Assembly (NCBI RefSeq): GCF_001412615.1
Contig: NZ_CP013011.1
Location: 480,001 to 512,000 of the forward strand
Source of the DNA: Pyrodictium delaneyi
Lineage (GTDB): Archaea; Thermoproteota; Thermoprotei_A; Sulfolobales; Pyrodictiaceae
Direction of reading: 5' to 3'
Length of the DNA stretch: 32,000 bases
Each line of letters starts with the position of its first letter. Position 1 is the stretch's first letter. Both the position numbers and the translations under genes were made by a program. This document shows, one piece after another, positions 1,914-22,195 of this stretch. Below the pieces are notes generated by a model that was not told the origin of the DNA, made no database searches, and saw only the letters and a program-made list of their open reading frames with translations.

Positions 1914-2579
1914 CTACCTTATTCTGACAAGCTTCCCTGACTCTATTCTATAGGCGTTAAAGCCCTCGAGGAGTTCTTCGGCACTCTTTTGCGGAGACGT
2001 CGCTACAACCGCCATACCACGGTGCAACAACTCCTCTAATAAGCCACGAAGCGCTTCAACCGCGTCATCGTCGAGTCCAGTAAACGGTTCATCTATAGCT
2101 AGTACCCTGGGACGGTGGAGGAGTGCACGCGCTATGTTAGCCCGCTTCTTCCAGCCGAAACTCAGTTCCCCTGCACGGGTGTCCAGGTAACGTCCAAGCC
2201 CTAGAATTTCCACAACCTCGTCCTCCTCGGGACGGTATTCTATACCATAGAGGCGGGCATAGTACTCAAGGTTCTCCCGGACGGTAAGCTCGTCATAGAG
2301 TAGACTATGATGAAGGACTACTCCCAGCACCCGGCGCGCTCCGGGGGTGTAGGGCGACTGTCCCGCGATGAGTACTTCTCCACGGCTGGGTCGGGCTAGT
2401 CCGACTAGTATACGCAGAAGTGTAGTCTTGCCCGAGCCGTTAGGCCCGGTAACCAGCACACCCCTTCCTGGCTCCACGCAGAGACCGACATCACATAATA
2501 CCCATCCACGGTTCCAGTCGTACCGTTTCCATACACCACGGGCCTCAAGCAGACAGGCAGCCACGGTATCCACCACCAC
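1914..2579 (-). CDS. ccmA: ABC transporter ATP-binding protein, haem-exporter CcmA-like
   Basis: Walker A GPNGSGKTTLLRIL, Walker B RVLAIDEPFTGLD, degenerate signature LSFGWKKR, and ccm context. The longest ORF starts at TTG 2747 and would overlap the upstream gene by 17 nt. The ATPase core begins near residue 66, so a GTG at 2573-2579 is the more likely start. The start is uncertain. Confidence 0.8.
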   Translation of the reverse strand: MVVDTVAACLLEARGVWKRYDWNRGWVLCDVGLCVEPGRGVLVTGPNGSGKTTLLRILVGLARPSRGEVLIAGQSPYTPGARRVLGVVLHHSLLYDELTVRENLEYYARLYGIEYRPEEDEVVEILGLGRYLDTRAGELSFGWKKRANIARALLHRPRVLAIDEPFTGLDDDAVEALRGLLEELLHRGMAVVATSPQKSAEELLEGFNAYRIESGKLVRIR

Positions 2580-2730: not shown

Positions 2731-3369
2731 CTAACGGCGGCTAGCAACAGCCATAGCGATTACTAGGACGCCTACTGCTGCTAGGTATAGTGCCAGACCT
2801 ACTGGTAGACCTGTCTGTACAAGCGGCTCAGCTTCCTCAGAGGGGTTCGGCACCGGCACTTGCGGCAACTTCTGGTAGGTTACAGTTGGCTTCGGCTTCA
2901 CCGGTTGCTGCGTCTGGACAGGAACTGGCTTAGTGGTCGTAGTGGTAGGTGTCTCTGCCTCTGTAGTTGACGCCTCGGTTGGCTTCTCTTCCTGTGCCGG
3001 GGCGGCTCCACCACTCTTAGCCTCCTCAAACACCTTGGCAAAGTAGTCCTTGAGTTCAGGTGTTATCCCGGGCATGGCATTCATAAGTTCGTCCCACGTC
3101 TTAGCGTTGTTGAACATCTTGAAGTTAGGCGCCTCTGCTGCCACAGCCTCGTCAAGGCTCGCATACTTTGACGCCCACTCCTTAATCACCGCCACAGTAC
3201 CCTCGAAATCCGGCGCCATTGCCCCATTATGACAGCCAGTACAGCCCTTAGACTGAAACAGTTGCTTAGCCTCATCTGTGGTTAGTGCGGCTGCTACTGA
3301 CACTAGACCTACAGTTGCTAGTATTGCGAACATCACTATTGCCAGCGATACACGCATCTTCATGGACAT
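2731..3369 (-). CDS. monohaem class-I-like cytochrome c with Thr/Pro-rich linker and C-terminal membrane anchor
   Basis: Single CxxCH (LFQSKGCTGCH). N-terminal signal/TM MKMRVSLAIVMFAILATVGLVSVAAA. TTEAETPTTTTTKPVPVQ linker, then a C-terminal TM ending in RR. GGGGGA precedes the ATGs at 3369/3363. The ORF-track start at 3429 is probably too long. Confidence 0.8.
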   Translation of the reverse strand: MSMKMRVSLAIVMFAILATVGLVSVAAALTTDEAKQLFQSKGCTGCHNGAMAPDFEGTVAVIKEWASKYASLDEAVAAEAPNFKMFNNAKTWDELMNAMPGITPELKDYFAKVFEEAKSGGAAPAQEEKPTEASTTEAETPTTTTTKPVPVQTQQPVKPKPTVTYQKLPQVPVPNPSEEAEPLVQTGLPVGLALYLAAVGVLVIAMAVASRR

Positions 3370-3435
3370 CCCCCATTCATGCGTGCCTGTATTAACTTGA
3401 GTATTTAGAGTATTTAGAGCGCCTAGCACCGGTGA

Positions 3436-3442
3436 CTATATA
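3436..3442 (-). promoter_or_regulatory. TATA-like element (TATATAG on minus) upstream of the monohaem cytochrome c gene
   Basis: The reverse complement of 3436-3442 is TATATAG. It lies between the NrfD-like stop and the cytochrome c start, right after a T6 tract. Confidence 0.3.
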
Positions 3443-3480
3443 CATACGTACATGTTCTAGTTCTAAGAATCACATGATCT

Positions 3481-3486
3481 AAAAAA
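3481..3486 (-). terminator. oligo-T (T6) tract after the NrfD-like gene
   Basis: Plus-strand AAAAAA at 3481-3486 gives T6 on the minus strand, 16 nt downstream of the stop at 3502. Confidence 0.3.
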
Positions 3487-3501
3487 TAGTGAGCGTTGTC
3501 T

Positions 3502-4758
3502 TCAATGATGTGCACCGCTACCCTTAAAGTAATGTGTCATTACAGCCTTAAGGGCAGGTCTTGCTAGCAATAAGTATATCAGTATGCCGATCGCATGTAC
3601 ACCAGCAGTTATGCCTATCTCCAGCGCCGTTGGATAGTATGGGTGTACTTCACCGAGTGTACCCGGCACAAACGCTGGTATGATTATCGTCATTGTTTTC
3701 TCTGCAACCACTGCCACTATTGTGATAACTGATACCAGGATTATGCCTTTCTTTGAGTTGTGTACACGCGGCAGTATGCCCAATATCACTGCTGCTATAC
3801 CTAGGCCTATCCAAAGCCACATCATCTTCGCCAGATATGGTAAGTGGTATCCCAGGAATAGCACCTGGGCTTGCGCTTTCTTCATGGGCTCAGTGGTATA
3901 CCAGAATATCTCATGGACTTCGCTGAGTGTGAAGTATAAGCCTACGACCAGAGAGCCCACGATCACATACAAGGTCTTCTTGTATACGCTAAAGTCCACT
4001 TTGAAGCCCTTCATATAGCGCTCTGCTAGGTACAGTGCCAGCAGCAGTATTGCAGGACCGCTTGCAAACGCGGTGGCAACGTAGCGGGGAGCAAGCAACG
4101 GGCTGTTCCATATAGGCCTCGCTGTCAGCGCCTGGGATATGAATGCTGTCACAGTATGTATACCTATGGCAAAGGGCGCTGCAATCGTTATGAAAGGTAC
4201 TATGAATTTCTTAGGCAATGGCTTGTCCTGTCTGTAATAGTGGACGGTTACTAGCATACCTATCAAGTTTAGCGTTAGGTAACCCGTTAGTACAATGAAG
4301 TCCCAGTCAAGCATTGAGCGTAGGTTTGGCAGCTGTGGCATCAATATCATAGCACGGAATGGACGGCCAATGTCGACAGTTATGAGCAGCAGCACTGTTA
4401 TGATTGCTGCTACTGCTTGCACTTCACCAAGCACTGCCACTTTTTTGAATTCCTTGTCGCCGAACACATAAGCCGCTATACCAAACACTATACCGGCAGC
4501 CGCTACTCCAACCCAGAATACGAAGAACGCTATGTAAATACCCCATGGCACACTATCACTTAAGTCAGTTAGTATTAGACCGCCTTCTTCCTTACCGAGA
4601 AATATTGGCGCATGCTGGACAAATATCCATAGATACATACCATAGAGCGCCACTATTAGCAAGCCTATTAATGCTAAGTAGTAGCGGCGGCCGCCGTTTA
4701 GTAGTGCTTCTCTGACGATGAATTTTATTGTATCTAGGAAGCTCCCATCCGCAGTCAT
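3502..4758 (-). CDS. NrfD/PsrC-family integral membrane quinol-interacting subunit
   Basis: About 418-aa polytopic membrane protein directly downstream of the Tat-exported FeS subunit. The stop of the upstream gene (TGA 4782-4784) overlaps the longest-ORF TTG at 4785. ATG 4758 is preceded by GGGGGTGA (4764-4771) with a 5-nt spacer. Architecture and context match the NrfD/polysulfide reductase family. Confidence 0.8.
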   Translation of the reverse strand: MTADGSFLDTIKFIVREALLNGGRRYYLALIGLLIVALYGMYLWIFVQHAPIFLGKEEGGLILTDLSDSVPWGIYIAFFVFWVGVAAAGIVFGIAAYVFGDKEFKKVAVLGEVQAVAAIITVLLLITVDIGRPFRAMILMPQLPNLRSMLDWDFIVLTGYLTLNLIGMLVTVHYYRQDKPLPKKFIVPFITIAAPFAIGIHTVTAFISQALTARPIWNSPLLAPRYVATAFASGPAILLLALYLAERYMKGFKVDFSVYKKTLYVIVGSLVVGLYFTLSEVHEIFWYTTEPMKKAQAQVLFLGYHLPYLAKMMWLWIGLGIAAVILGILPRVHNSKKGIILVSVITIVAVVAEKTMTIIIPAFVPGTLGEVHPYYPTALEIGITAGVHAIGILIYLLLARPALKAVMTHYFKGSGAHH

Positions 4759-4781
4759 CTGAGTCACCCCCGGCTTACCTG

Positions 4782-5813
4782 TCAATGTCCAGTTTCTCTC
4801 TCAGTTCCAGGCTCACGTGGAGGTGTACGCTTAGGCCCGAAGAAGTAGAAGAACCTGGGTCTTGTACCGGCTTCCGGCTTCAATACGAAAGCACCGTATT
4901 CCTCTATGACGCGGCGTATTGGGCTACTGGGATCGTGAAGGTCACCAAATACTCTTGCACCGACAGGACATACCTCGACACAAGCCGGCACGCCACCGTC
5001 GCGGGTGCGCTGTATACACCAGGTGCACTTCTCAACAACGTGTATTTGCCTCGGCACATTGCCTAGTATGTGCATGTTGGGGTTCAGTTCAGTTACAGGT
5101 ACGTATGGCTTAGCCCAGTTGAAGCGCCGTGCCCCGTAGGGGCAAGCAGTTATACAGTAACGACAACCAATACAACGGTCATAGTCCACTACTACTATGC
5201 CATCAGGCTCCTTCCATGTAGCCTTAACCGGACACACCATAGTACATGGCGGATCTTCGCAGTGCATACATGCTACTGGTACATACACCATGTTCGGCTT
5301 TGGCGCATCAGTGTAGTGCATGTTAGCGTAAACTATCTCCATTTCCTCTCTGGGTATTTCTAGTACCTTTATCCACTCTATACCCAGGTTCCTTGCCTGA
5401 TTGTTCTCCATGACGCATGCATAGGCGCAACGGCGACAGCCAATACACTTGTTCACATCAAGCGCCATCGCGAAACGCACGCCTTCGCGAGGACCAGTAG
5501 CCTTCACCTTTATCATGGCACAGCGCTTGCGTGCCTCTTTACAAGCCTCGGAGTCCTCACCCATACTGCTACAGATCTTTTCAGCCTCTGCTTGACACCA
5601 CTGCTTAAGCTTGGCTTCTCTTTCCTGGGCTCTTCTTTCAAGGGGGCTACCTGCTTCAGCAGCCTCCGCTATGAGATCCTCTACTCGTACTGGCACTAGC
5701 AGTTTCTTCAGCTCATCCCGGCTAACAGCAACAAATGATACTGCAGAGACGCCAGCCGCTACAGCAGCAACCTTGAGGAAGTCCCTCCTAGACTGGTTTA
5801 TGCGGCCCTCCAC
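4782..5813 (-). CDS. Tat-exported 4x[4Fe-4S] ferredoxin-type subunit (NrfC/PsrB/DsrO/ActB2-like)
   Basis: Twin-arginine signal QSRRDFLKVAAVAAG. Four cluster motifs: CIGCRRCAYAC, CMHCEDPPCTMVCP, CIGCRYCITACP, CTWC...CVEVCP. GTG start at 5813 is preceded by GGGGGTGA (5820-5827) with a 6-nt spacer. Confidence 0.9.
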   Translation of the reverse strand: MEGRINQSRRDFLKVAAVAAGVSAVSFVAVSRDELKKLLVPVRVEDLIAEAAEAGSPLERRAQEREAKLKQWCQAEAEKICSSMGEDSEACKEARKRCAMIKVKATGPREGVRFAMALDVNKCIGCRRCAYACVMENNQARNLGIEWIKVLEIPREEMEIVYANMHYTDAPKPNMVYVPVACMHCEDPPCTMVCPVKATWKEPDGIVVVDYDRCIGCRYCITACPYGARRFNWAKPYVPVTELNPNMHILGNVPRQIHVVEKCTWCIQRTRDGGVPACVEVCPVGARVFGDLHDPSSPIRRVIEEYGAFVLKPEAGTRPRFFYFFGPKRTPPREPGTERETGH

Positions 5814-5829
5814 TCCACTTCACCCCCTG

Positions 5830-6510
5830 TTACTCACGTGAATACCCTAGAGGGAGAACAAGAGCACCTATAGCTAGGATTAACCCGCCAATAACTGCTG
5901 CTATGGTACCGTAGGCCACGCTGGTCTCGTCAGGTGGTGCAGGCCTATTAGATGGGGGCGGCAGTATGCTCGCAGGTGGCATAGTCGGTTCATGAGGGTT
6001 ATGACATTCGACACATGCCTTAGCCGGTATTGTCTTGAGGTTCTTATACTCGGTGCAGAGGTGAAAGTCGTATCCGACGCCCTTATAGCCTATAACCTTT
6101 GTCACGTTGCCGTTGGGGCAAACATAGGTCTTGTTGCCATGTACTAGGTAGTTATAGTCGGTGACCTCGCGTGGATGGCATACAGCACATACCTTATTGG
6201 TCTCCTTGAGTTCTTGTGTACTGTGTAAGCCAGGTATGTAGACTTGAGCACCATTCACTAGATCTATCATTGTCGGTGCTATATGACAGTTTGAGCAGAA
6301 AAGGCCTCTGTGAGCACCCTTTGTGAGGTCGATACCGTGAAAAGGTACTGTCTTCCTATCGCCAGTTAGCTGCATCGTTTGATGACAGGTTGTACACGGA
6401 TAGAACTGGGCGGGGTCCTGGGCATGCGCTGTGACAGCTGAAAGTACTGGAACTATTATAGCAAGGGCTAGGGCTACTGCAGTCAATACTATGCGCGGAT
6501 TCCAACGCAT
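5830..6510 (-). CDS. tetrahaem c-type cytochrome, N-terminal signal peptide and C-terminal TM anchor
   Basis: Four CxxCH motifs (CTTCH, CSNCH, CAVCH, CVECH). Signal peptide MRWNPRIVLTAVALALAIIVPVLSAVTAHA. Pro-rich linker, then TM IAAVIGGLILAIGALVL. ATG 6510 is preceded by GGAGGTG. The ORF-track extension to 6645 lacks signal-peptide features. Confidence 0.85.
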   Translation of the reverse strand: MRWNPRIVLTAVALALAIIVPVLSAVTAHAQDPAQFYPCTTCHQTMQLTGDRKTVPFHGIDLTKGAHRGLFCSNCHIAPTMIDLVNGAQVYIPGLHSTQELKETNKVCAVCHPREVTDYNYLVHGNKTYVCPNGNVTKVIGYKGVGYDFHLCTEYKNLKTIPAKACVECHNPHEPTMPPASILPPPSNRPAPPDETSVAYGTIAAVIGGLILAIGALVLPLGYSRE

Positions 6511-6770
6511 GCTAGGCACCTCCAAAACCGTTGTAGTCATTATTCTATGTTTCGCTAACACTACACTATTTACCATGATTGAGGTACTGCTAGTACTTAC
6601 TTTAGAATTAAACGTTAGCCCGAAAAGTTCCCCTTTGACCAGCACTGACCAAGTCTACAATTCATGACAAACCCTAGTCCATTCACCTAATTGCACAAAA
6701 TAGTTATGTATATTACGTAAATATTTGCGGAGCTTATACGAAAGTCTTCCGCGAGAATGAGGCCAGACAC

Positions 6771-7313
6771 TTAACTTTCAAGCCTGCCAGCTGGCGCCTG
6801 GTAACTCTCATGACAACCTTCGAGTATCTTATTCACCATCAACAGCGGGTACTCCTCCACTTTACCTGTAGCTGTATTCATTATAACCACATGCACTGAT
6901 GGTTCATAACGTCCCTCTACTACGACCCTACTAGAGACACTCGGGCTACCACCATAAAGGTTCTTGAACTCATTAGCACTATAGAGTGCTACTACGCGAA
7001 ATCCATCTTTCCCTTCTAATATGAATACAGCATAGCTATCATCGTTACCAAAAGGAGGCCCATCTACACGTTCCGCCACCCCATAGGAGCCGAAACCTTT
7101 CATTGAATATACCGTATCTCCTATCCGGAGCAGGTAGCTACTGCCAGCGAGATTTACCGGCGTACCACGAACAGTCACATATGCTTCGTAGTCTAGGCTC
7201 TTTAGACTAGACACATCCTTATAGTCGGACGACTTTATACTCATAAACCCTATTGCCAATAGTGCTGCGAACAGTATACCCGCAAACATTAATGATTTGC
7301 CAGTTTTAGCCAT
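6771..7313 (-). CDS. ccmE: haem chaperone CcmE, archaeal CxxxY variant
   Basis: N-terminal TM anchor, beta-rich (OB-like) body, and a C-terminal LEGCHESYQAP motif (Cys codon at 6813-6815) where bacterial CcmE has HxxxY. Sits between ccmC and the cytochrome genes. GGGGGT lies 7 nt upstream of the ATG. Confidence 0.8.
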   Translation of the reverse strand: MAKTGKSLMFAGILFAALLAIGFMSIKSSDYKDVSSLKSLDYEAYVTVRGTPVNLAGSSYLLRIGDTVYSMKGFGSYGVAERVDGPPFGNDDSYAVFILEGKDGFRVVALYSANEFKNLYGGSPSVSSRVVVEGRYEPSVHVVIMNTATGKVEEYPLLMVNKILEGCHESYQAPAGRLES

Positions 7314-7367: not shown

Positions 7368-8399
7368 TCACACACCTCTACCACGGCTGCGAGATGCATA
7401 TAGCATTAGGACTCCAAGCAACATTAAATATGCCGCTACATTGAGGGCTACACTCCAGTGTATAACTATTTCAACACTAGAGTCTCTTATCTTCACGAGG
7501 TGTCCTATTATTGCAGGCTCACCCTCAACTATCGGTACAGTGAGCGGCTTACTTAGCTCTACATAACCACTCTTAGATAGCATTAACGCGACAACTTCGC
7601 CGTTAGCTAGCTTCGCATCTACTACACGTTCGACTCCGCCACTAAGGTACGGATATACCATAATCAGTCCCACGACTATACCAGCTATAACAAAGACTAT
7701 TCCAGCATAGCGTAATATTCCAACATGAAGGGGCTTAGCATTCTCGTAGCGTTTTGCCATTATATACGCCAGCAGAATAGCTATCAATGATGCCATTACT
7801 ATACGTGTAACAAATATCCTTATGACCTCTGGCTGGGCCATAAAGTTACCAAACTGCTCCATTGTTGGGTGAAGGCTCGAAGCTACTAACCGCGGTGCAA
7901 GGAAGCTTACCGGAACCATAGAGTACGCCGCTACTGCATAGGCTGCACTTAACCTACTTGCACGATCTGGGTCAGGAATGCTTGAACGCAGCACAAAATA
8001 CAAGAGATATGCTAAGAGCAGAAGAAGTACCCCGGTCTCTCGGGGATCCCAGGACCATGCTGAACCCCAGGACTCGCTAGCCCATGCCATACCACTAACG
8101 AGTGTAAATATAGCGTAAGCGGTAGCTGTAGCTATGAACGCCTGTATATACGCATCAAGTTTCTCGCTGCCCCGGACAAGATACGCAATTGCTGTGATAA
8201 ATGCTAGCGTGTATAGAAGGTAGCTTCCCCATGCCATTGGTATATGTATATATATGTTGAGATATGCCGTCGGTGAGCCAAGGTTGACGCGTAGCGGATA
8301 TGGCGCTCTGAAAGCAGCATAGACCACTAGAAGCGCGTCAATAGCCGATAACACTAGAAGTAGGGGAACAATCGTTTTCTCCAGACCACGCTTTACCAT
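7368..8399 (-). CDS. ccmC: haem-handling protein CcmC with about 95-aa C-terminal extension
   Basis: WWD motif WGSAWSWDPRETG and polytopic topology. At 343 aa it is longer than typical CcmC (about 250 aa). The extension is a soluble beta-rich segment plus one extra TM. Confidence 0.85.
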   Translation of the reverse strand: MVKRGLEKTIVPLLLVLSAIDALLVVYAAFRAPYPLRVNLGSPTAYLNIYIHIPMAWGSYLLYTLAFITAIAYLVRGSEKLDAYIQAFIATATAYAIFTLVSGMAWASESWGSAWSWDPRETGVLLLLLAYLLYFVLRSSIPDPDRASRLSAAYAVAAYSMVPVSFLAPRLVASSLHPTMEQFGNFMAQPEVIRIFVTRIVMASLIAILLAYIMAKRYENAKPLHVGILRYAGIVFVIAGIVVGLIMVYPYLSGGVERVVDAKLANGEVVALMLSKSGYVELSKPLTVPIVEGEPAIIGHLVKIRDSSVEIVIHWSVALNVAAYLMLLGVLMLYASRSRGRGV

Positions 8400-8471: not shown

Positions 8472-11400
8472 CTAACGACTATGCCGTTTTACTGCTATTA
8501 TTCTGACTACGGCAATATATACGGCACCAAGGGCCATAATTATTGGACCTATCCATACTAGGCGTATTCCCGGAATTATCTTAACCTGTACATGCAAGCC
8601 CTCCTTTACTATGGTCGAGTTTGTCTGACCGAAGTTCTCGGCTAGAAGGTAGAGGTCTACAAGAGTGGCCTCTACTTGTTGCCGTTCATCAACTGATAAG
8701 CTACCATCATTGAGCACGTCAACATTATACCCTGCAGCCATTAGTGCTGCTAGTGCAAGCCGCTTCTCTGGAGGCAAATGCTTAAAGGCTTCATGAAGGT
8801 AATAGACTAGTAGTTCATGATAGGCGACCCTGCCACCTATATAACCTTCTACTACTGGAGGGCTAACTACGACGTAGACATCATCCAGTCCAAGCCCTAT
8901 AGGTATAACTTTCGATACGAGACCATGTATACCTTGTATCTCACCATAAGCTTCGAAGCGTATCCTAACGTTAACGGTCTTGGACCAGTCTCCGTGTTCT
9001 ATCTTTAATCTTACTTCGAGCCACGCTGTCTCCGGTACCAGTCGCGGTGCGTCGACATAGCCGAAACAGCCATGCTGGCTTTTGAGGCACGTCGGGGATT
9101 CTACTAGCCTGTCTATTGCTGTTGAGTTTACGAGCAGTTGATATAGAGATGACTGCTCTATGCTCTGGAACATCTTCTGGGTTGTAGGGTTTAGCGATGC
9201 TATTAGGTAAGCTGCTACTGCTGGTGAAAGCTGTGATGGCACCTTTACTTTGCCAGCTTCTGGGGACTTTATGTATCCGTATACATAGAGAGCCGCGTTG
9301 CTACCAGTAATGGTGCTATTGTTTACTATGAAAGGAGCGCCTTTACCTGCTAGGAGTAACGCCTCCGGTAGGAGGCCTATACGTTCTGCTATCACTTCTA
9401 CGTCTCCTAGCCTTAGTCTTAGGGGTGTAGTGAACCGCATCTCTATGTATTTGTGGAATCCTATCTTGTCTTGTTCGATCGGAATAACAGCCGGCAGTTC
9501 TACCGTCAGGTTTGCTGCCCCTACAAGTAAGTCCACACTTATGACGCCTGTATTGGGATCCATGTTTAAGTCTAGTCTGAGCAGCGCTTTATCTAGTATT
9601 ATTTTTACTTGCTGATTTCTGGCCAGTATCATGGTGCCGTTGTTTTCAAGATCATATAGAGTTACTGTAGCATTGCCGGTCGCTATTACAGTTGTGTTCA
9701 GATCTATTGGACTATTTTTGGCCACCTTGAATAACCACTCTACAGTCTTATTACTATTGAACAATTCTTTGCCTTGGTTGTAGAGCTTTATAAACTCAGC
9801 TAAGTCGTTTTTAAGGAAGTTGAGCACATTCCATGCTAGGACATATGTGCTACTCCTACCGACATAGTTAGTGTATATATCCACAGTGGAGTTACTTATA
9901 CCGTAACTGAAATCTTCAAATGTTAATTTCGCACCACTAGGTAAACTTATGGAGTCGCCGGGCTTAAGCTCATAATACCAGGTGTACTTATCGTTAAACG
10001 CATAAGTGCCGCTGAGAATTACACCCAGCACAGTTACGGCTAAACCTAGATGCAGTAGCGATACAGCAGTAAGTCTATCGGCTACGATGAGTACTGAACG
10101 ACTACGCCACAACCTATACGCTATGTAGACCAGTGTGGATGCAGCTGCTATGACCGCCCACGGTACACCAAAGGCCATCAGCGCGTTGGTCTCGGGTGGA
10201 CTAAGAGGAGCCAGGATGTAAACGCCTTTATAAGCTGCTAAAGCGAACACTGTGGACACTATTGTTGTTGTTAGGAGTAGTGCTGTGTATCCTTTCCATC
10301 CTAGTTTGTCTCCTGTGAATGCTAGCGGGATTGCTGCTAGCATCGCTACTAGTAGCGGGTAGAGTACGGGGTGGAAGTAGCGTACACCACTCTGCATCTG
10401 AGGAACACTAGCCTCAACGCCAACAGCGCTGAGTATCGAAGGCAGAAAGAGAGTACCATATACGAATATAGCCGATAACAGGAGCGCCATCCCCGCAATA
10501 AACAAGCCCATTTTGTATAAATTCCGCTCCCGCAGCGTCCTAGCAGTCTCAGAAACTATTTTCTCACCATTACGGGCTAGCACATACACACCATAGACTA
10601 GCGGTGTCACACCAGCACTAAGGAGAAGCAGAGCACCAATACCAGGAGCTGCGAAACTATGTAGTGGACTAAGCCCTGTCCTAGTAACATACATGGCTAT
10701 AAACACTGAACTAAGCAGCCATGCAGCGTTATATCTAACAAAACTGGGAACAACAACCATAAAATGCGGCAATGTAGTAGCTACTAGCCATACCATTAGT
10801 TCGCTTGTCTCTACGGGGTCCCATGCCCAGTAGCCTCCCCAGCCGAAGGTCTCGTAGCTCCAGTAGCCGCCAATCATGATGCCGAGGGTTAGGAGAGCCC
10901 AGCCAAGCTCGTAGACGACGAGACTCCGGCGCTTCTCGCCAGTAAGCATAGCTGCAGCCGCTACCGCGAGTAGCGCGTAGCCGCCGAAGGTACTGAGGGG
11001 GTGCGGGTAGAGCCACGGACTCTTAAGCAGCGGGTTAAGCCCAGCACCGCTAGCCGGGCGTTCTGGTAGCAGAGCGAATGCTCCATTTAGAAAGGCTCCA
11101 GCTAGAGCTGCTAGGACCAAGGAGCCTAGTATTGCTTGGAATAGGCGACTCCGGTGAATCCGGAGTAGATAGAGACCTGCTGCCGATGCTATCACAGCGA
11201 AGAGGTATAGACTACCGCCACCCCCGGCCCACGCTGATGCTATTCGCATCGAGAGTGGGAGCCCGGGACTTGTATTCCAGAAAGCCTCACGGAGACTATA
11301 ATCCAGAGTCACAAAGGGGATCACATATACAAACCAGCCCGCTACAGCCACAGCGAGTCCATAGCGTAGTAGGCGCTCTCTACTTCTCCCCGCTACTGCT

Positions 11401-11495
11401 GATGCAACACTAGCTGCTACTAGTAGACCCGCCACGAGTGGAGCTATGCCTGTGTAATGTATGGGCAGAGCCAAGACCATCAATCCTCCATCCAT
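8472..11495 (-). CDS. ccmF: cytochrome c haem lyase subunit CcmF with a greatly expanded extracytoplasmic domain
   Basis: WWD motif WGGYWAWDPVETSE and an N-terminal polytopic region of about 500 aa. This is followed by about 450 aa of non-membrane sequence rich in NxS/T sequons and one terminal TM. Total length is 1007 aa. Confidence 0.9.
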   Translation of the reverse strand: MDGGLMVLALPIHYTGIAPLVAGLLVAASVASAVAGRSRERLLRYGLAVAVAGWFVYVIPFVTLDYSLREAFWNTSPGLPLSMRIASAWAGGGGSLYLFAVIASAAGLYLLRIHRSRLFQAILGSLVLAALAGAFLNGAFALLPERPASGAGLNPLLKSPWLYPHPLSTFGGYALLAVAAAAMLTGEKRRSLVVYELGWALLTLGIMIGGYWSYETFGWGGYWAWDPVETSELMVWLVATTLPHFMVVVPSFVRYNAAWLLSSVFIAMYVTRTGLSPLHSFAAPGIGALLLLSAGVTPLVYGVYVLARNGEKIVSETARTLRERNLYKMGLFIAGMALLLSAIFVYGTLFLPSILSAVGVEASVPQMQSGVRYFHPVLYPLLVAMLAAIPLAFTGDKLGWKGYTALLLTTTIVSTVFALAAYKGVYILAPLSPPETNALMAFGVPWAVIAAASTLVYIAYRLWRSRSVLIVADRLTAVSLLHLGLAVTVLGVILSGTYAFNDKYTWYYELKPGDSISLPSGAKLTFEDFSYGISNSTVDIYTNYVGRSSTYVLAWNVLNFLKNDLAEFIKLYNQGKELFNSNKTVEWLFKVAKNSPIDLNTTVIATGNATVTLYDLENNGTMILARNQQVKIILDKALLRLDLNMDPNTGVISVDLLVGAANLTVELPAVIPIEQDKIGFHKYIEMRFTTPLRLRLGDVEVIAERIGLLPEALLLAGKGAPFIVNNSTITGSNAALYVYGYIKSPEAGKVKVPSQLSPAVAAYLIASLNPTTQKMFQSIEQSSLYQLLVNSTAIDRLVESPTCLKSQHGCFGYVDAPRLVPETAWLEVRLKIEHGDWSKTVNVRIRFEAYGEIQGIHGLVSKVIPIGLGLDDVYVVVSPPVVEGYIGGRVAYHELLVYYLHEAFKHLPPEKRLALAALMAAGYNVDVLNDGSLSVDERQQVEATLVDLYLLAENFGQTNSTIVKEGLHVQVKIIPGIRLVWIGPIIMALGAVYIAVVRIIAVKRHSR

Positions 11496-11530: not shown

Positions 11531-13090
11531 CTAGACGAGTTGAAGTGTATATAAAAGCAAGTACACACCCGCAACAACTAATACAAAGCCACCAATCCGC
11601 TGAAGTAATGTATAACGCCCCATCACCTTGTTTACTATGCTACTACCAAGCCGGCTCGCAGCATAGACTGCGAAAGCTAGTGGAACACTCACACCAAGGG
11701 CAAAGCTGACTGCCACAGCTATACTTGATACCAAGCTTCCTACTCCTACTACCAGTAGTAATGCTCCGGCCACCAACGGCAAACTGCATTGAACCGCTAA
11801 GAAACCATAAACGGCACAAAAGCCGACAAGACCACCACGCTTGATACCAACAACACCTTCTAGCTCTATGGGTATACCGAGAAGACTAGCAACACCTGCA
11901 GCAACTATTGCCGTCGCAACCGCTGGAAGGAGTATACTCTGGAGCGATGATGCAAGGCTAGAAGCAAGGACAAACAACAGTCCTATGGCTATGACGCCGG
12001 TAAAGGCCGCAATACCACATACTATACAGCTGGACGCGGAAATTTTTCTGCCAGAAGTTCCTGCTGCGCTTACATATGCCACCAGTAGAGGGAAAACACA
12101 CGGAGAAAATGTAGCTATAATACCGGCTACTAGCGCTGCTACGACGCCAACTAGGCTAGTACTTATTGCCCCACCGACGTCCAGAGCAGTATCGCCGTTA
12201 CCAGAATTCTGCTGAACACTAGCCGCAAGAGTAACATTAGTCAACGCCGCTATCGCTGGCGGCTCTCTATCCTCAAGCACCGCTGAAACATAGTCGAGAA
12301 GGTAGGCTAATCTGTCTATCTCATAAGATGATAGGTCTGGGACATATTTCCTCATAGACTTGACTGTATCGGATATTCCTCCATAGCTCCCATAGAGCTC
12401 GCGTAGTGTCATATTCTTCTCTAGAGCCTCGTTTAGTCTCCTCGCTAGGAGATCAGCCCTGGTATCGCGGGACTCGAGCCATGCCTGCAGCGAAGCTTTA
12501 TCCAGCCCACCTATCTTGCCATGACAAGCAGAGCAGCGGCTGTTAAAGATGCGCAGCCCTTCTTCTGCTAGCTTTTGGGGGTCAGACACACTGCTTAAAC
12601 CTACAGAGAACAATGCCCAGTTAAGCATTGTATCGGTAACATTCTCACCACCGAATGGACCTACGTGTCTTGCTACAGGCTCACCATCGACGAATACTAT
12701 GAATGTTGGCGTCTCCGTCACATGATATTTTCTAAAAGCCTCTTCAGTTGAAGGACCATAGACTATATGGAAGAAGCTGATAGGGAGGCTGTCGCTTCGA
12801 TACTCCAGCATAGCCCAGTAAGGGTGCATCTGCTTACACGTAGGACACGTAGGAGACTCAAACATTATTGCTATAGGCTTTTTTGAATCAAGTATCTTCT
12901 CTAACATAGCCGAGCTTGATATAGCGTATTCGTCGACCCTCATGTAGTAAGTAGCCAAATTTTGCTCCCAAGTGAAGAGGATAGTCGAGAATAACACTCC
13001 GACTACTAGTAACGCCACCAGCAGTACTCCAGCCCTCTTGGTCTTTTGGAAGCCATGGATGTCTAAGCGCATTCTACTAGAGTTCTGCAT
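11531..13090 (-). CDS. fusion protein: TM anchor + thioredoxin-like (CcmG/ResA-like) + cytochrome c-like CxxCH domain + CcdA/DsbD-type thiol transporter
   Basis: CPTC at residues 82-85 with a cis-Pro TPTF. EEGLRIFNSRCSACHG at residues 176-191. C-terminal polytopic domain with FSPCVFPL and AVQCSLPL, the CcdA signature cysteines. Confidence 0.8.
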   Translation of the reverse strand: MQNSSRMRLDIHGFQKTKRAGVLLVALLVVGVLFSTILFTWEQNLATYYMRVDEYAISSSAMLEKILDSKKPIAIMFESPTCPTCKQMHPYWAMLEYRSDSLPISFFHIVYGPSTEEAFRKYHVTETPTFIVFVDGEPVARHVGPFGGENVTDTMLNWALFSVGLSSVSDPQKLAEEGLRIFNSRCSACHGKIGGLDKASLQAWLESRDTRADLLARRLNEALEKNMTLRELYGSYGGISDTVKSMRKYVPDLSSYEIDRLAYLLDYVSAVLEDREPPAIAALTNVTLAASVQQNSGNGDTALDVGGAISTSLVGVVAALVAGIIATFSPCVFPLLVAYVSAAGTSGRKISASSCIVCGIAAFTGVIAIGLLFVLASSLASSLQSILLPAVATAIVAAGVASLLGIPIELEGVVGIKRGGLVGFCAVYGFLAVQCSLPLVAGALLLVVGVGSLVSSIAVAVSFALGVSVPLAFAVYAASRLGSSIVNKVMGRYTLLQRIGGFVLVVAGVYLLLYTLQLV

Positions 13091-13233: not shown

Positions 13234-13905
13234 TTACACAGCCTCCAGGATATAGCGAGAAAGCCAAACAGTCACCCCAGTAAATGCCAGGGCCGCTAAG
13301 ACAAGCCATACAACCTCTAACACCCCTATATTACCACCCAGAAGTGCAGCCACTATGCTAGGTGCTGCGGACTGCACATAGGGAAGCACGAGGACAAGCA
13401 CCATTACGGGCATCAATACTGCACGGGCCTCACTAAACACTAATATAGCTGAAGTAAAGCTAGATACAGCTGCAAGATACATACTTGACACAATAATCAA
13501 CATAAGTACTACTGGACTAAACATAACCCCTATTTGGGCAAAGAAGCCCAACGACATTATAAAGACAAGTGCTTGCATTGTTATAACTGCAAAACTATAG
13601 ACAAACTTTGCAAGGAATATAACCTCTGCACCTACTGGAGCCAATCGGAGTCCATCAAGTGTACCGCGATCAGCTTCTCTGACAAAGCTAGAAAGACTTC
13701 CAAATACGGCAAGGAATATGAGAACAAGAACGAGAGAAACACTGGCAGCAGCAGCATTTACTCCAGCAACACCTTTCATAACATATGCTGTGAGGACACC
13801 GGCAGCTAACGAGAATACTAGCATGGACCCCGCTTCAACTCTACGACGCAGATCTAGCAAGATATCTCTGCGTACAATAGCCGCTATTGCCCTTATACCG
13901 CTCAT
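13234..13905 (-). CDS. ccmB: haem exporter membrane subunit CcmB
   Basis: About 224-aa, six-TM hydrophobic protein in ccm context. ATG 13905 is preceded by GGGGGAGGT. The ORF-track start at 13989 adds 28 unlikely residues. Confidence 0.8.
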   Translation of the reverse strand: MSGIRAIAAIVRRDILLDLRRRVEAGSMLVFSLAAGVLTAYVMKGVAGVNAAAASVSLVLVLIFLAVFGSLSSFVREADRGTLDGLRLAPVGAEVIFLAKFVYSFAVITMQALVFIMSLGFFAQIGVMFSPVVLMLIIVSSMYLAAVSSFTSAILVFSEARAVLMPVMVLVLVLPYVQSAAPSIVAALLGGNIGVLEVVWLVLAALAFTGVTVWLSRYILEAV

Positions 13906-14101
13906 GACCTCCCCCAATCTTCCAGCGTCTCTAAGCCCCTTAATCACTACGCCTCGAGATCGCCAAAAAGCCAGCCAAATTACGAACACACTACACCATT
14001 ACACATAAAGACTGATAATCAATACTAGGACCAAGGACTAACATGTTACACCGAAGACGCGCTACCAAGAGAGTCAAAAAGGCTAAGAAGGATGATAAGT
14101 C

Positions 14102-15052
14102 CTAGGTTACAGTTGCCTCAGCAGCCTCCTCGATTCCAGCCCCAGTTTTAGCACGTTCCTCTACACGATGCCTAGAGCTGAGACGTTCCTCCACAATACT
14201 TGTTTGCCGATTACCATACAATGCCCTTCCAACTATGTAGTGTGGCAGCTCGTGACGCACAAATGCGTCAATTATCTTAGCTTCAGCCCTACGAAGGAGT
14301 TCTGCAAGAGTTGATACCGAGAGCCCTAGTTTTGATGCAAGTCCTTTTAGACTGATCCGGCGCGGAAAGCTATAGTAGCCCATGAGATAAGCATAGATTA
14401 TAGCAAGCTCCTGCTTCTCAGTAAGCATATAATCATACTCATCTATACCATGGCTGTGAATAGGCTTACAACCCCAACGGCGTAGTTCTTCATAAGTACT
14501 ACCACGAGCTACAATGAATTCATAGAGGGCCCCCATCGGAGTTACTACTACAGATTTAGCCATTGAACCAAGTGGTGTAGATATAAGCGGACACTTATTA
14601 CAAGGCGTAGATAATAAGCATCTATGGCATTTACTTTTCGGTATAATAATACGCACAACCTTATTGAATTTGTTCGAATACACTTGCTGGAAGTAAATCT
14701 CCTTAGCTAAGCGTAGTTGTTTATCAAAATTATCTACGAGAACTTTGTCACCACTGACTCTAACCCAAATTTCCGTATAATTATCGTCATATAAGTTGAC
14801 TCTTAGAATACGCAGAGCTAGCCTCGTTGCTCCATCCCCGCCTAAAATACCATCGACACTCATCTTGGAGCCATCATTCCCATGCAGACGTCGCACATTA
14901 GACGAAACATAGGCAGCCTTAACTACATCGTAAAGCGGACAATCCAATTCACGTAGACAGTATACCACAGATGATTTGTGAGACAAGTTATACACCCCAA
15001 AGAGGAACCGCCATAGTAATACACCACCACACTCCGGCGTAGGTGGTGTCAA
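14102..15052 (-). CDS. HTH_10 (bacterio-opsin activator-type) transcriptional regulator with a CxxC-x5-CxxC motif
   Basis: C-terminal LTEKQELAIIYAYLMGYYSFPRRISLKGLASKLGLSVSTLAELLRRAEAKII matches the Bat-type HTH. Central KCHRCLLSTPCNKCP at 14591-14629. The longest ORF starts with TTG and the true start is uncertain (ATG at residue 64 is possible). Confidence 0.6.
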   Translation of the reverse strand: MTPPTPECGGVLLWRFLFGVYNLSHKSSVVYCLRELDCPLYDVVKAAYVSSNVRRLHGNDGSKMSVDGILGGDGATRLALRILRVNLYDDNYTEIWVRVSGDKVLVDNFDKQLRLAKEIYFQQVYSNKFNKVVRIIIPKSKCHRCLLSTPCNKCPLISTPLGSMAKSVVVTPMGALYEFIVARGSTYEELRRWGCKPIHSHGIDEYDYMLTEKQELAIIYAYLMGYYSFPRRISLKGLASKLGLSVSTLAELLRRAEAKIIDAFVRHELPHYIVGRALYGNRQTSIVEERLSSRHRVEERAKTGAGIEEAAEATVT

Positions 15053-15158: not shown

Positions 15159-16742
15159 TTAAGTTATATATCGTTTACTAACAATCACTATACTAAACAT
15201 CGCGCCGAAACCTAAGCCAATTAGAAACCATAATATTTGCTCATAACGATCTGCTATTAGTTGCGCATTCCCATAAGAACCAGAAGAATTAATATCTTTT
15301 ATAGCTATTTGTTTAATTCTTGACTTATTTAAATATATATCTGACTTACCATGCTGTGCAACACCATTTTCTGGAAATTCTTTATTTTCTATGCCGGCTG
15401 TTACATTTAACTTTCCATGTTGTTGCACTGTGTAATTGACAAGCTCTCTAGAAGGACATCCAGTTAAGTTAGTCATAGTCTTCATATCTACGCTAAGACT
15501 ACTTATATCTATTAAAGGCCATGTACTACTTTTAGTGCTAGCTGCTATAAGCACACGACCAACCAGAGCTTCTAGAGTCTCTCTACAAGGAGATTGTAAT
15601 TCTTCAACCATCATTTTTATAACGTCCAACAAGCTTATAGAATCCTTAAGTCCAGTCGTAATTGATAGGTTGTATAACCTCCTTACAGTATCAATATAAA
15701 CATCTCTATCACAGGCCTGTATACCTGCATACCATAATGCAGCATTAACTCGCATCCAAACACTGTATTGTTCATCTACATCCAACATGTCATTAAGATA
15801 ATTAACAGCTAGTCTATACAAGCGGGGATTATTATCGTGGAGAGCTTTCATAGCCAGAAACTCTGCAGCCGCTTCCTGAAAGCTAAAATCACCATACAAC
15901 ATACCATGGTTAAACCATCCATGTGATGTCTCGTGCGCCGCCGTATGGACAAGCCAAGGAAGTATATCCTCAGCATATGAGCTTAATTTCATGTATACTA
16001 TACTGCCCATGCTATGCGCTGTATTTGGTGGCAGAAAGCTATGTTCTTCTGGTCCTACAATCACGAGAACGCAAGGCGAGCGTGGACTCGGACCAAGCCA
16101 TTTAGTTAAGGTGGAGCGCACTATTAGTAAGCTTTCCACGGCATACTTGACAACATTTTCTGGTATATTGCGCTGCATAATCACAGTCAAGTTTTCTTCT
16201 ATATAGTCATTAATATCATATATTCTTCTGTTGGCCAAGACTATTCCGTCAAATATGTAGTATCTGGCGAAAGATTCGAGATCCACTCTGTAAGGGCCCC
16301 CGGCTGGCCCGTAGCTGCGCCAGTCCATACTACTTCTAACCATATAGTTATCAGGAACATGTATCGTTATAAGTAGAGTTTTGTTTCCACTACTGCCAGC
16401 AAGGATCTGTATCTCAGAGATAATTTGCGGACATACTTTATCCAGTACATAGTAGAGGGGGGCCACTATAAGATCGCGAGATACACTCCTAGTTTGTAAA
16501 TAATACACGTTAGGGCCTAGTAAACCAGAACAGTTTATGCTGGAATCATGCCCCTCTAATGTTATAGAAACGCGCCAGACATCGCTGCTTACGGGCTCTT
16601 TAAATACTATTATAAGGTTATATTGCTGAACTGTATCCGTCTTATCGGTGAGATTGGATACTCCAGCTATAGCAATGGAACTCGTAAGAATAATAATTGC
16701 CGCAAAACTTGTCACAGTATAGCATAGCCAACACGAAGCCAT
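15159..16742 (-). CDS. membrane-anchored extracellular gluzincin (peptidase M1-like) protein
   Basis: HETSHGWFNH...FQEAAAEF resembles the M1 HExxH-x18-E region (HELAHQWFGN...WLNEGFA). No clear GxMEN motif. N-terminal signal/TM and a C-terminal TM ending KRYIT. Many NxS/T sequons. The gene is markedly AT-rich. Confidence 0.55.
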   Translation of the reverse strand: MASCWLCYTVTSFAAIIILTSSIAIAGVSNLTDKTDTVQQYNLIIVFKEPVSSDVWRVSITLEGHDSSINCSGLLGPNVYYLQTRSVSRDLIVAPLYYVLDKVCPQIISEIQILAGSSGNKTLLITIHVPDNYMVRSSMDWRSYGPAGGPYRVDLESFARYYIFDGIVLANRRIYDINDYIEENLTVIMQRNIPENVVKYAVESLLIVRSTLTKWLGPSPRSPCVLVIVGPEEHSFLPPNTAHSMGSIVYMKLSSYAEDILPWLVHTAAHETSHGWFNHGMLYGDFSFQEAAAEFLAMKALHDNNPRLYRLAVNYLNDMLDVDEQYSVWMRVNAALWYAGIQACDRDVYIDTVRRLYNLSITTGLKDSISLLDVIKMMVEELQSPCRETLEALVGRVLIAASTKSSTWPLIDISSLSVDMKTMTNLTGCPSRELVNYTVQQHGKLNVTAGIENKEFPENGVAQHGKSDIYLNKSRIKQIAIKDINSSGSYGNAQLIADRYEQILWFLIGLGFGAMFSIVIVSKRYIT

Positions 16743-19482: not shown

Positions 19483-19532
19483 GATCGGCATACCCTCCAC
19501 ACACCCTTATTTTTAGCCGTGATAGTCAATAT

Positions 19533-22107: not shown

Positions 22108-22195
22108 GCGGGGGTGCCCGAGCCAGGTCAAAGGGGGCGGGCTCAGGACCCGCTGGCGTAGGCCTGCGTGGGTTCAAATCCCACCCCCCGCACCA
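22108..22195 (+). tRNA. tRNA-Leu (anticodon CAG), class II with long variable arm, CCA encoded
   Basis: Hand-folded. Acceptor GCGGGGG/CCCCCGC. Anticodon stem GCGGG/CCCGC with loop CUCAGGA (CAG at 22144-22146). Variable arm of 14 nt. T arm GTGGG-TTCAAAT-CCCAC. Discriminator A followed by CCA. Confidence 0.9.

Follow-up and report, generated by a model that had tools for sequence, protein, structure and literature searches.

This analysis concerns a 32,000-nt stretch of the Pyrodictium delaneyi genome (the window; all coordinates are positions in it) and, within it, four consecutive genes which encode a tetrahaem cytochrome c, an iron-sulfur (FeS) protein exported by the twin-arginine translocation (Tat) route, a membrane subunit of the NrfD family and a monohaem cytochrome c (Table 1). 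We refer to the first three as the trio and to all four as the module. According to the list of open reading frames (ORFs), the minus strand carries every gene between about 300 and 19500, and the four genes are indeed found between ccmE and ccmA, as had been claimed in an earlier note on this DNA (below, the original prediction), with ccmA about 10.7 kb away from ccmB (10.5 kb in that note). The same note had remarked on the lack of a molybdopterin-like subunit; neither the ORF list nor Pfam and NCBIfam searches gave an ORF of the size or type of such a subunit in the window. In the type strain, Su06, the monohaem cytochrome bears the tag Pyrde_0485, and a P. delaneyi entry annotated as ‘polysulfide reductase’ has the same sequence as the NrfD-like protein (100% identity). 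The FeS protein is encoded identically in P. delaneyi strain Hulk (contig NCQP01000007.1, assembly GCA_002194565.1), where the module genes should be Pdsh_09000 to Pdsh_08985, as worked out from the ccm tags in PMC5556600.

Table 1. Features of the module and of its surroundings (window positions; TM, transmembrane helix; aa, amino acids)
Feature	Position	Strand	Remarks
Tetrahaem cytochrome c	6510-5830	-	Pyrde_0488, 226 aa, ATG start, signal peptide and C-terminal TM
Tat-exported FeS protein, four [4Fe-4S] motifs	5813-4782	-	Pyrde_0487, 343 aa, GTG start
NrfD-family quinone-interacting membrane subunit	4758-3502	-	Pyrde_0486, 418 aa, ATG start, PF03916
Monohaem class I cytochrome c	3363-2731	-	Pyrde_0485, 210 aa, ATG start
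Conserved non-coding leader/promoter region	6515-6644	-	5′ of tetrahaem gene
Shine-Dalgarno GGGGGTGA	5820-5827	-	6 nt 5′ of FeS GTG
Shine-Dalgarno GGGGGTGA	4764-4771	-	6 nt 5′ of NrfD ATG
Spacer NrfD/monohaem	3364-3501	-	138 nt
ccmA, ABC ATPase	1914-2564	-	TIGR01189 best match
ccmE, archaeal type	6771-7313	-	TM anchor, C-terminal CHESY = CxxxY
ccmC	7368-8399	-	Pfam/NCBIfam, public gene call
ccmF	8472-11495	-	Pfam/NCBIfam, public gene call
Thioredoxin-cytochrome c-CcdA fusion	11531-13090	-	Pyrde_0492, 519 aa
ccmB	13234-13917	-	Pfam/NCBIfam, public gene call
HTH_10 regulator	14102-14947		
527-aa protein with HETSH	15159-16742	-	signal peptide, C-terminal TM
Octahaem HAO-family cytochrome	16933-19500	-	Pyrde_0496, Multi-haem_cyto
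tRNA-Leu (CAG)	22108-22195	+	Rfam and ARAGORN

The membrane subunit belongs to Pfam family PF03916 (132.2 bits for a cut-off of 25.8, E = 4.2e-38) and has about 10 hydrophobic helices. Since H201 is the sole invariant histidine in an alignment of 34 sequences, no haem b is expected. Among the NCBIfam models the best score was that of DsrP, 238.5 bits against a cut-off of 350, followed at a distance by QrcD with 43 bits. When a profile of the 34-member family was compared with all PDB sequences, it matched only ActC of alternative complex III (ACIII; 1.3e-24) and not PsrC, a result which fits the published ActC/ActF/DsrP/DmsC supergroup (PMC8076601). Residues D129, S148 and D153 align with H139, S164 and D169 of the quinol site of ActC, and E353 and K354 with ActC E394 and R395, where two proton half-channels meet (PMC8076601). 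Across archaeal and bacterial members, S148, D153, E353 and K354 do not vary, and the conservation of D129 is at least 90%. The Asp/Ser/Asp plus Lys pattern is that of Desulfovibrio DsrP1 (Asp106, Ser124, Asp129 and Lys329; PMC8076601, Table 2), with agreeing spacings. By these features the protein appears to be a functional member of the DsrP/ActC branch that interacts with quinone. Three facts set it apart from a true DsrP: the cut-offs of both Dsr models were missed (see below for DsrO), the tetrahaem cytochrome does not match DsrJ and no DsrMK is present.

The FeS protein has the Tat motif SRRDFLK, of which the two arginines are kept in all orthologues, and 16 cysteines in four complete ferredoxin motifs (Pfam Fer4_11, 6.8e-21). 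Here the best NCBIfam model was DsrO, narrowly missed with 194.9 bits for a cut-off of 200, ahead of ArrB (158), TtrB (155), QrcC (145) and NrfC (123); matches in the PDB include PsrB (7.6e-40) and the C-terminal domain of ActB (8.8e-34). The FeS/NrfD pair goes with DsrO/DsrP and not with a catalytic complex iron-sulfur molybdoenzyme, the grouping that the original prediction had named as speaking against it. A peculiarity of the FeS subunit is an insert with four cysteines, C73-x7-C81-x9-C91-x6-C98 (residues 73-98, window 5520-5597), which follows the Tat signal and precedes the first ferredoxin motif. The insert is kept in Pyrodictiaceae and Ignicoccus and absent from the bacterial homologues, and it could be a helical hairpin stapled by disulfides or an additional site for a metal.

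In the tetrahaem cytochrome, a hydrophobic N-terminal signal ending in AHA-QD is followed by four CxxCH motifs (at C39, C72, C108 and C166) and, after a Pro-rich linker, by a C-terminal TM helix (203-221). Five histidines outside the motifs, H58, H67, H124, H150 and H173, are conserved in the alignment, which is enough to make bis-His ligation of all four haems possible; C131 and C152, within an insertion between haems 3 and 4, are conserved as well. The protein is 46% identical (E = 1e-55) to Igni_0530 of Ignicoccus hospitalis, whose sequence was taken from the supplement of PMC4429474. As Igni_0530 has been isolated from the membranes of that organism and contains four haems (PMC4429474), the family can be regarded as one of genuine haem proteins. 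There is weak similarity to Cytochrome_C7 and NapC/NirT, and 24-29% identity to the N-anchored bacterial tetrahaem cytochromes of the same gene trio in loci L019 and L021. The unusual anchoring pointed out in the original prediction proved real when the families were compared: the archaeal tetrahaem cytochromes have a signal peptide and a C-terminal TM helix, whereas four of five bacterial homologues have an N-terminal anchor alone and the fifth (L025) only a signal-peptide-like N-terminus. The archaeal clade is small. A profile search of 1.84 billion representatives clustered at 50% brought 512 relatives, but only 11 at E ≤1e-19, which constitute this clade; the other 500 or so form a tail of distant, small bacterial multihaem proteins, the named ones being ‘hypothetical protein’ entries from Desulfarculus and Thermodesulfovibrionia. 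The tetrahaem sequence had no match in the PDB. For the AlphaFold2 models of the tetrahaem (pLDDT 71.8) and monohaem (pLDDT 73.4) cytochromes, Foldseek gave no match in the PDB (best E-values 0.67 and 3.4), a result with no bearing on fold novelty, the query models being without haem and including TM helices and disordered linkers.

The monohaem cytochrome consists of a signal peptide, a domain with one CxxCH (CTGCH) and a nearly invariant M97, a Thr/Pro-rich stalk and a C-terminal TM helix (188-206). It has no Pfam match of its own, whereas its Pyrolobus orthologue passes Pfam Cytochrom_C. Its relative of interest is APE_1719.1 of Aeropyrum pernix (BLASTP E = 4e-13, 32% identity over 92 aa; hhalign 99.3%), with which it shares the whole layout of signal, class I CxxCH...M domain, Thr-rich stalk and C-terminal TM helix; homology, the CxxCH...Met domain and the C-terminal TM helix, the three marks of this family that we looked for, were all found. 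APE_1719.1 is cytochrome c553, the haem-staining subunit of a menaquinol-oxidising, cytochrome c-reducing complex purified from A. pernix (PMC3062577). Pyrfu_1105 and Hbut_1395 were placed in one group with it by Kletzin et al., who also noted that Pyrolobus and Hyperthermus have neither cytochrome b nor Rieske protein and suggested ‘an unidentified electron transport complex’ (PMC4429474). In the loci that we fetched, Pyrfu_1105 and Hbut_1395 are the genes directly downstream of that of NrfD, so the trio, being DsrOP/Cbc4-like, is an obvious candidate for the complex these authors had in mind. We did not find this linkage of a c553-type gene to the trio stated in the literature cited here. 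The c553-type protein of Pyrolobus fumarii (L017, 11327-12193) contains an internal tandem duplication, with two near-identical class I domains and two CxxCH motifs; Pyrolobus is the only microaerophile of the group.

About 25 related loci were compared, and the absence of a catalytic subunit was counted in 16 archaeal and five bacterial ones. A scan of genome contigs gave only close Pyrodictiaceae and Desulfurococcales, while cultured relatives and bacterial cousins were fetched singly. NrfD homologues with 50-89% identity are present in Pyrodictium abyssi, P. occultum, Hyperthermus butylicus, Pyrolobus fumarii and Pyrofollis japonicus, as well as in many metagenome-assembled genomes of Pyrodictiaceae and Desulfurococcales; identity is 48% in Ignicoccus islandicus and then drops to 35-40% in bacteria. 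Every archaeal locus of sufficient length has the order tetrahaem, FeS, NrfD, monohaem, except that of Ignicoccus (I. islandicus), in which the gene downstream of NrfD does not encode a cytochrome. The five bacterial cousins, one Nitrospiraceae genome and four metagenomic contigs, each have a tetrahaem cytochrome, a Tat-type FeS protein and an NrfD protein; the latter passes the DsrP cut-off where this was tested (392-419 bits), and neither dsrMK nor a shared molybdopterin subunit is found at these five loci. Their neighbours are diverse: additional multihaem cytochromes, a NapAB-type nitrate reductase (L024), or rhodaneses next to a complete Psr-like enzyme that has separate FeS and NrfD proteins to itself (L025). 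Such variety would be expected if a general quinol dehydrogenase served various periplasmic reductases. The lack of a molybdopterin partner thus extends beyond P. delaneyi: no such subunit is encoded with the FeS protein in the window or at the roughly 25 related loci (distant genome sites were not searched), and the molybdopterin enzymes close to the module in L019 and L025 have an FeS subunit of their own, with NrfD or NapC-type partners.

The trio is probably also one unit of expression. Its genes are tightly spaced, the stop codons of the tetrahaem (TAA, 5832-5830) and FeS (TGA, 4784-4782) genes being close to the next start, and the two internal Shine-Dalgarno sequences GGGGGTGA are exactly where the original prediction had placed them; a GGAGGTG motif is located 5′ of the tetrahaem ATG 6510. 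In the whole 32 kb there are three GGRGGTGA sites, two of which are those 6 nt before the internal starts. Their number is not above chance, since three were reached in 18 out of 100 shuffles; it is the placement of GGGGGTGA and not the count that is telling. Longer reading frames were rejected for three genes: for NrfD from TTG 4785, because the Shine-Dalgarno sequence, ATG 4758 and the public gene call all point to a protein of 418 aa; for the tetrahaem cytochrome from GTG 6645, because of the Shine-Dalgarno position, the interspecies indels of the leader and the public gene calls; and for ccmA from TTG 2747, on account of Shine-Dalgarno positions and public gene calls.

The gap between ccmE and the tetrahaem gene is AT-rich and 260 nt long, and a leader of about 130 nt in it is conserved between genera; from 6561 to 6620 it is 92% identical to P. 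abyssi, i.e. at the level of the best coding blocks. It contains TTTCGGGCTA, the TATA-like TTAATTCTAAA, TCATGG and the Shine-Dalgarno sequence GGAGGTG, all invariant in P. delaneyi, P. abyssi, P. occultum and H. butylicus, and the leader motif occurs once in the window. Counterparts are found at about 8112-8246 of locus L022 and about 8084-8200 of L016 (H. butylicus). Single-nucleotide, frame-breaking indels among the species exclude a coding sequence in the leader. No structured RNA was detected in it, either as an Rfam match or by RNAalifold on four sequences (-5 kcal/mol, no compensatory pairs). It is probably the promoter/operator and 5′ leader of a tricistronic operon, and perhaps includes an operator for the HTH_10 regulator encoded further upstream.

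The polycistronic translation proposed in the original prediction therefore fits the trio, for which close packing of the genes, the Shine-Dalgarno sequences and leader conservation speak for co-expression, but it probably does not extend to the monohaem gene, which in P. delaneyi is likely to have its own promoter. In the spacer before that gene, a T-run, TATTTTTT, directly follows the NrfD stop codon; AT-rich, TATA-like stretches come next, and close to a TATA-like sequence there is a perfect tandem of two copies of CTCTAAATA (3395-3415), not conserved in P. abyssi, to which the spacer is about 43% identical. From their sequence, these elements may act as terminator and promoter. Moreover, only the monohaem protein showed a higher abundance on ferrihydrite (PMC8105010), which together with the T-run, the AT-richness and the poor conservation of the spacer makes a separate promoter likely in Pyrodictium. 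The spacer is only 24-79 nt long in more distant relatives, and lengths of 24-45 nt are compatible with co-transcription there.

As regards the position of the module inside the ccm genes, the claim of an insertion is correct for the genus Pyrodictium only. P. delaneyi, P. abyssi and P. occultum have the order HTH_10 regulator, ccmB, thioredoxin-CcdA, ccmF, ccmC, ccmE, module, ccmA. Elsewhere, in Pyrolobus, Hyperthermus, Ignicoccus and bacteria, the module is an independent unit outside ccm. Two other Pyrodictiaceae loci (L009 and L012) have an unbroken and convergent thioredoxin-CcdA, ccmF, ccmA, ccmC, ccmE, ccmB array about 2.5 kb beyond the module; in a Desulfurococcales locus (L013) the module is followed by thioredoxin-CcdA, ccmF and the octahaem gene; the H. 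butylicus locus comprises the octahaem gene, a gene for a 505-aa protein and the module, without any ccm gene; and the neighbours are unrelated in Pyrolobus and Ignicoccus. By these layouts, the splitting off of ccmA is a rearrangement in one genus, within a loose ‘cytochrome c island’, rather than a property of the module.

Among the surrounding genes, the most relevant one encodes the octahaem cytochrome Pyrde_0496, the catalytic part of which matches the I. hospitalis octahaem cytochrome of PDB entry 4QO5 (E = 4.9e-79; Pfam Multi-haem_cyto 1.1e-20). It also has an Ala/Gln/Leu-rich coiled coil of about 200 residues and a C-terminal TM helix, a stalk that could hold the haem domain off the membrane, towards the S-layer or a mineral surface. 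In H. butylicus its gene is 1.8 kb upstream of the module with only a homologue of the 527-aa protein in between, and in L013 the two share a locus; from this synteny, Pyrde_0496 is a probable electron partner of the module. The 527-aa protein has HETSH (HExxH), no Pfam match and 47% identity to its H. butylicus homologue between octahaem gene and module; it may be an extracellular metalloprotease or a cytochrome-linked maturation factor. The ccmA product has TIGR01189 as its best match (122.4 bits, cut-off 131.6), and its homologue lies between ccmF and ccmC in L009 and L012. The genome paper of strain Hulk identified no CcmE (PMC5556600). The ORF at 6771-7313, between ccmC and the module, matches no Pfam or NCBIfam model and has archaeal CcmE hallmarks, i.e. 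an N-terminal TM helix and, as ILEGCHESY, the ILEGCHxxY motif (archaeal CxxxY) conserved in five Pyrodictiaceae. Pyrde_0492 combines a thioredoxin domain, a monohaem cytochrome c-like segment (CSACH) and a CcdA-like multi-TM domain in one protein; it is listed in the literature as a monohaem cytochrome, and its P. occultum counterpart was called as two genes (L023, 1630-3167). The tRNA-Leu (CAG) gene is the sole RNA gene that Rfam and ARAGORN gave in the window.

With a probability of about 60%, we consider the module to be a membrane quinol:cytochrome c oxidoreductase of the DsrOP/Cbc4 type, which would stand in for the cytochrome bc1 complex (bc1). This reading is favoured by DsrO/DsrP as best curated matches, by ActC as sole structure match and by the conservation of quinol-site and gate residues; by the lack of a catalytic subunit, the FeS protein having its own twin-arginine signal; by the homology of the fourth subunit to APE_1719.1 of the A. 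pernix menaquinol:cytochrome c complex; and by the bacterial cousins, which match the architecture of Cbc4 from Geobacter. A general quinol-dehydrogenase role is also favoured by the retention of the module in organisms with different terminal acceptors. In P. delaneyi, Pyrde_0485 and Pyrde_0486 are produced, and module proteins were detected on both nitrate and ferrihydrite; methylmenaquinone is present in Pyrolobus, and the P. delaneyi proteome includes the corresponding methyltransferase (PMC8105010).

We infer the formation of a complex, the direction of electron flow, the partners and the proton coupling from gene content, motifs, homologies and synteny. (Methyl)menaquinol would be bound by the NrfD subunit near the outer face of the membrane (Y75, D129, S148, D153) and oxidised there, with release of protons to the outside. 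The electrons would cross the FeS subunit by way of its four [4Fe-4S] clusters, enter the tetrahaem cytochrome with its four bis-His haems, and go from there to the tethered monohaem c553-type cytochrome and/or the stalked octahaem cytochrome, which would feed the terminal reductase in use, for nitrate/NO, Fe(III) oxide or sulfur compounds. Energy would be conserved at least via a redox loop with the outward-facing uptake hydrogenase, and the E353/K354 pair could leave room for extra proton translocation.

Several points weigh against such a function. The direction of electron flow is unreadable from sequence, and the related Qrc complex runs the opposite way. Kashyap and Holden treated Pyrde_0485-0496 as one putative respiratory complex, and their electron-transport model for P. 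delaneyi is built on another cluster, Pyrde_0784-0787, to which quinol oxidation is assigned (PMC8105010). In Geobacter, deletion of cbcS was without phenotype (bioRxiv 10.1101/2025.04.14.648717), so that the role of the bacterial analogue is itself unproven. In P. delaneyi the monohaem gene is likely to be transcribed separately, and in Ignicoccus it is not beside the module. The FeS gene of H. butylicus (L016, 8908-9976; CP000493.1) is split into two overlapping ORFs of 206 and 154 aa, whereas the octahaem, tetrahaem, NrfD and monohaem genes of this organism are intact; the split is either a sequencing error or a sign of decay of the cytochrome c system in a fermentative sulfur reducer. Lastly, the finding that neither cytochrome b nor Rieske protein is encoded applies to the window and not to the whole P. 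delaneyi genome.

An unlikely alternative is that the same complex works in reverse in the manner of Qrc, electrogenically passing electrons from outward cytochromes c, reduced for instance by hydrogenase, to the quinone pool. QrcC and QrcD do figure among the next-best family matches, and the residues of the NrfD proton path, which Qrc uses for quinone reduction, are conserved (PMC8076601). In I. hospitalis an octahaem cytochrome could be reduced by the native hydrogenase, from which a relay of cytochromes was suggested to start (PMC4429474). In P. delaneyi, however, the uptake hydrogenase is of the membrane-bound type 1g, thought to reduce quinone directly (PMC8105010), and QrcD scored 43 bits against 238 for DsrP. 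Besides, the four FeS motifs are complete, which would leave no [3Fe-4S]-type motif like that of QrcC, and the fourth subunit corresponds to the output cytochrome of a quinol-oxidising complex in Aeropyrum.

A little less probable than reversal is a reductase of sulfur compounds, the reading under which these genes have been published. Podar et al. saw in Igni_0528-0530 a polysulfide reductase of the bacterial type, probably derived from Deltaproteobacteria (PMC2614490), Naß and Kletzin proposed Igni_0530 as a component of the sulfur reductase (PMC4429474), and Demey et al. took Pdsh_08990-09020 of strain Hulk for a membrane-bound (dissimilatory) sulfite reductase complex and for an argument in favour of sulfate reduction (PMC5556600). 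In addition to these annotations, DsrO and DsrP are the best curated matches, one bacterial cousin adjoins a Psr-like enzyme and rhodaneses, and the neighbouring octahaem cytochrome could in principle reduce sulfite, by comparison with MccACD/SirACD (see also PMC8076601). But neither a molybdopterin subunit of the PsrA/SreA type nor DsrAB, DsrMK, DsrJ or DsrC is encoded here or at the related loci, and the octahaem cytochrome belongs to the HAO family, its likeness to MccA not being established. According to the tags in PMC5556600, Pdsh_08990-09020 works out to NrfD, FeS protein, tetrahaem cytochrome, CcmE, CcmC, CcmF and CcdA, and the same paper itself lists three of the members as ccm genes. 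Strain Su06, which does not grow on sulfur, has an intact module and expresses it on nitrate and iron (PMC8105010), and I. hospitalis has a separate and complete SreABC (PMC2614490). The polysulfide and sulfite reductase labels are thus not supported as stated.

A transmembrane relay like DsrMKJOP, in which a JOP-like part and an HdrDE/DsrMK-like module encoded elsewhere would together carry electrons between the cell exterior and a disulfide acceptor in the cytoplasm, appears distinctly improbable. It would account for the DsrO/DsrP matches and for bacterial cousins that pass the DsrP cut-off without dsrMK nearby, but no dsrMK-like gene is adjacent at any of the roughly 25 loci, the tetrahaem cytochrome does not match DsrJ and the archaeal scores are under the cut-offs. 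Least probable of all is an accessory role in cytochrome c maturation, e.g. the supply of electrons for reduction of haem or apocytochrome thiols: the module is between ccmE and ccmA in three Pyrodictium species and has ccm genes nearby in L009, L012 and L013, but such neighbours are lacking in Pyrolobus, Hyperthermus, Ignicoccus, several metagenome-assembled genomes and all bacterial cousins, and the ccm cluster already has its thioredoxin-CcdA fusion.

Returning to quinol:cytochrome c oxidoreduction, a bolder version of it can be offered tentatively, and we think it somewhat more doubtful than not: the trio may be the sole complex III equivalent of bc1-less Pyrodictiaceae and Ignicoccus, a ‘mini-ACIII’ with a single NrfD that oxidises methylmenaquinol and maybe translocates protons via E353/K354, the Pyrodictiaceae having recruited as output the type of c553 cytochrome with which the bc complex of Aeropyrum works. 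If true, one output subunit, c553, would serve two unrelated quinol-oxidising modules. A chain of hydrogenase, quinone and cytochrome c was reportedly described biochemically for Pyrodictium in the 1990s, and the mini-ACIII would then be its genetic basis.

The Pyrodictiaceae respire iron oxides, nitrate, sulfur compounds or trace oxygen, and the question addressed here is by which route electrons leave their quinone pool. The module, as a likely quinol:cytochrome c link, ties the ‘orphan’ c553 of Pyrolobus and Hyperthermus to a concrete biochemical target, for which the Pyrodictium proteins are candidates for thermostable purification and cryo-electron microscopy. Two annotations call for correction: the ‘sulfite reductase complex’ of strain Hulk, which had been taken as genomic evidence for sulfate reduction, consists of the module plus ccm genes, and the ‘polysulfide reductase’ of Ignicoccus has no catalytic subunit. 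The kind of system is already known from Cbc4, DsrJOP, ACIII and the Nrf/Sir type, and the cluster had been noticed before under other names. What appears to be new or newly connected is the archaeal mode of anchoring by signal peptide and C-terminal TM helix, the archaea-specific four-Cys insert of the FeS subunit and the linkage of a c553-type gene to the module in bc1-less Pyrodictiaceae. An archaeal branch with a different anchoring would thereby be added to the NrfD complexes devoid of catalytic subunit (Cbc4, DsrJOP, Qrc, ACIII), for which energy coupling is being actively investigated.

Comparison with characterised systems bears out the original prediction in its description of a stripped-down composition, since a module free of a catalytic subunit and akin to DsrJOP, ACIII and Nrf is what is found. 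A true DsrMKJOP, a true ACIII, a catalytic enzyme of the Psr, Phs, Ttr, Dms, Sre or Arr type and NrfABCD were each considered and rejected. The resemblance to Nrf and its relatives NrfBCD, SirCD and MccCD is one of principle, an FeS/NrfD pair oxidising quinol for periplasmic multihaem cytochromes; SirCD can replace CymA (PMC11434368). The membrane subunit has 10 helices here and not 8, the NrfC score is 123 bits for a cut-off of 378, that of NrfB 23.5 for 184, and there is no match to the NrfD equivalog. With ACIII, the module has in common the match to ActC, an FeS protein aligning with the C-terminal domain of ActB, and the logic of a path from quinol via FeS clusters and a multihaem to a monohaem cytochrome that replaces bc1. 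It differs by the lack of the molybdopterin-like ActB1 domain (the 343 aa of the FeS protein align only with the C-terminal part of ActB), by one NrfD-like subunit instead of ActC plus ActF, by a tetrahaem instead of the pentahaem ActA, and by the lack of ActD; with four complete cluster motifs no [3Fe-4S] cluster is expected, and the monohaem cytochrome is related to the Aeropyrum c553. A difference from the A. pernix c553 is that in P. delaneyi, Pyrolobus and Hyperthermus the c553-type gene follows the NrfD-FeS-tetrahaem trio. DsrJOP is close by its DsrO/DsrP family matches, the 10 TM helices of the NrfD subunit and the DsrP1-like Asp/Ser/Asp pattern with Lys in place of the central Arg, but both scores are under the equivalog cut-offs (194.9 versus 200 and 238.5 versus 350), the cytochrome is not the trihaem DsrJ, and there is neither DsrM/DsrK nor a link to DsrAB/DsrC. 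Igni_0528-0530 are direct orthologues, and the I. islandicus locus (NrfD 48% identical) has the same gene order, with the differences that no monohaem gene follows downstream and that NrfD is longer (468 aa). The nearest named analogue, missing from the list of the original prediction, is Cbc4 of Geobacter sulfurreducens (CbcS-CbcT-CbcU, GSU0068-0070), regarded as a menaquinol:ferricytochrome c oxidoreductase (bioRxiv 10.1101/2025.04.14.648717; PMC11434368). CbcS is an N-anchored bis-His tetrahaem cytochrome, CbcT has four [4Fe-4S] clusters and is a reported DsrO homologue, and CbcU is the membrane subunit (bioRxiv 10.1101/2025.04.14.648717); in the citation given by PMC13104607, Cbc4-like complexes have already been invoked for an archaeon, Ferroglobus placidus. 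Likened by published description and not by sequence, both systems combine a tetrahaem cytochrome, a four-cluster FeS protein and a cofactor-less membrane subunit without catalytic subunit, and our bacterial cousins show the same three-gene order, with the N-terminal anchor in four out of five. The archaeal module stands apart by a cleavable-type signal and a C-terminal TM helix where CbcS has a 29-residue N-terminal anchor, by an insertion of about 25 residues between haems 3 and 4 of the tetrahaem cytochrome, by the four-Cys insert of its FeS subunit and by the fourth, c553-type gene that follows.

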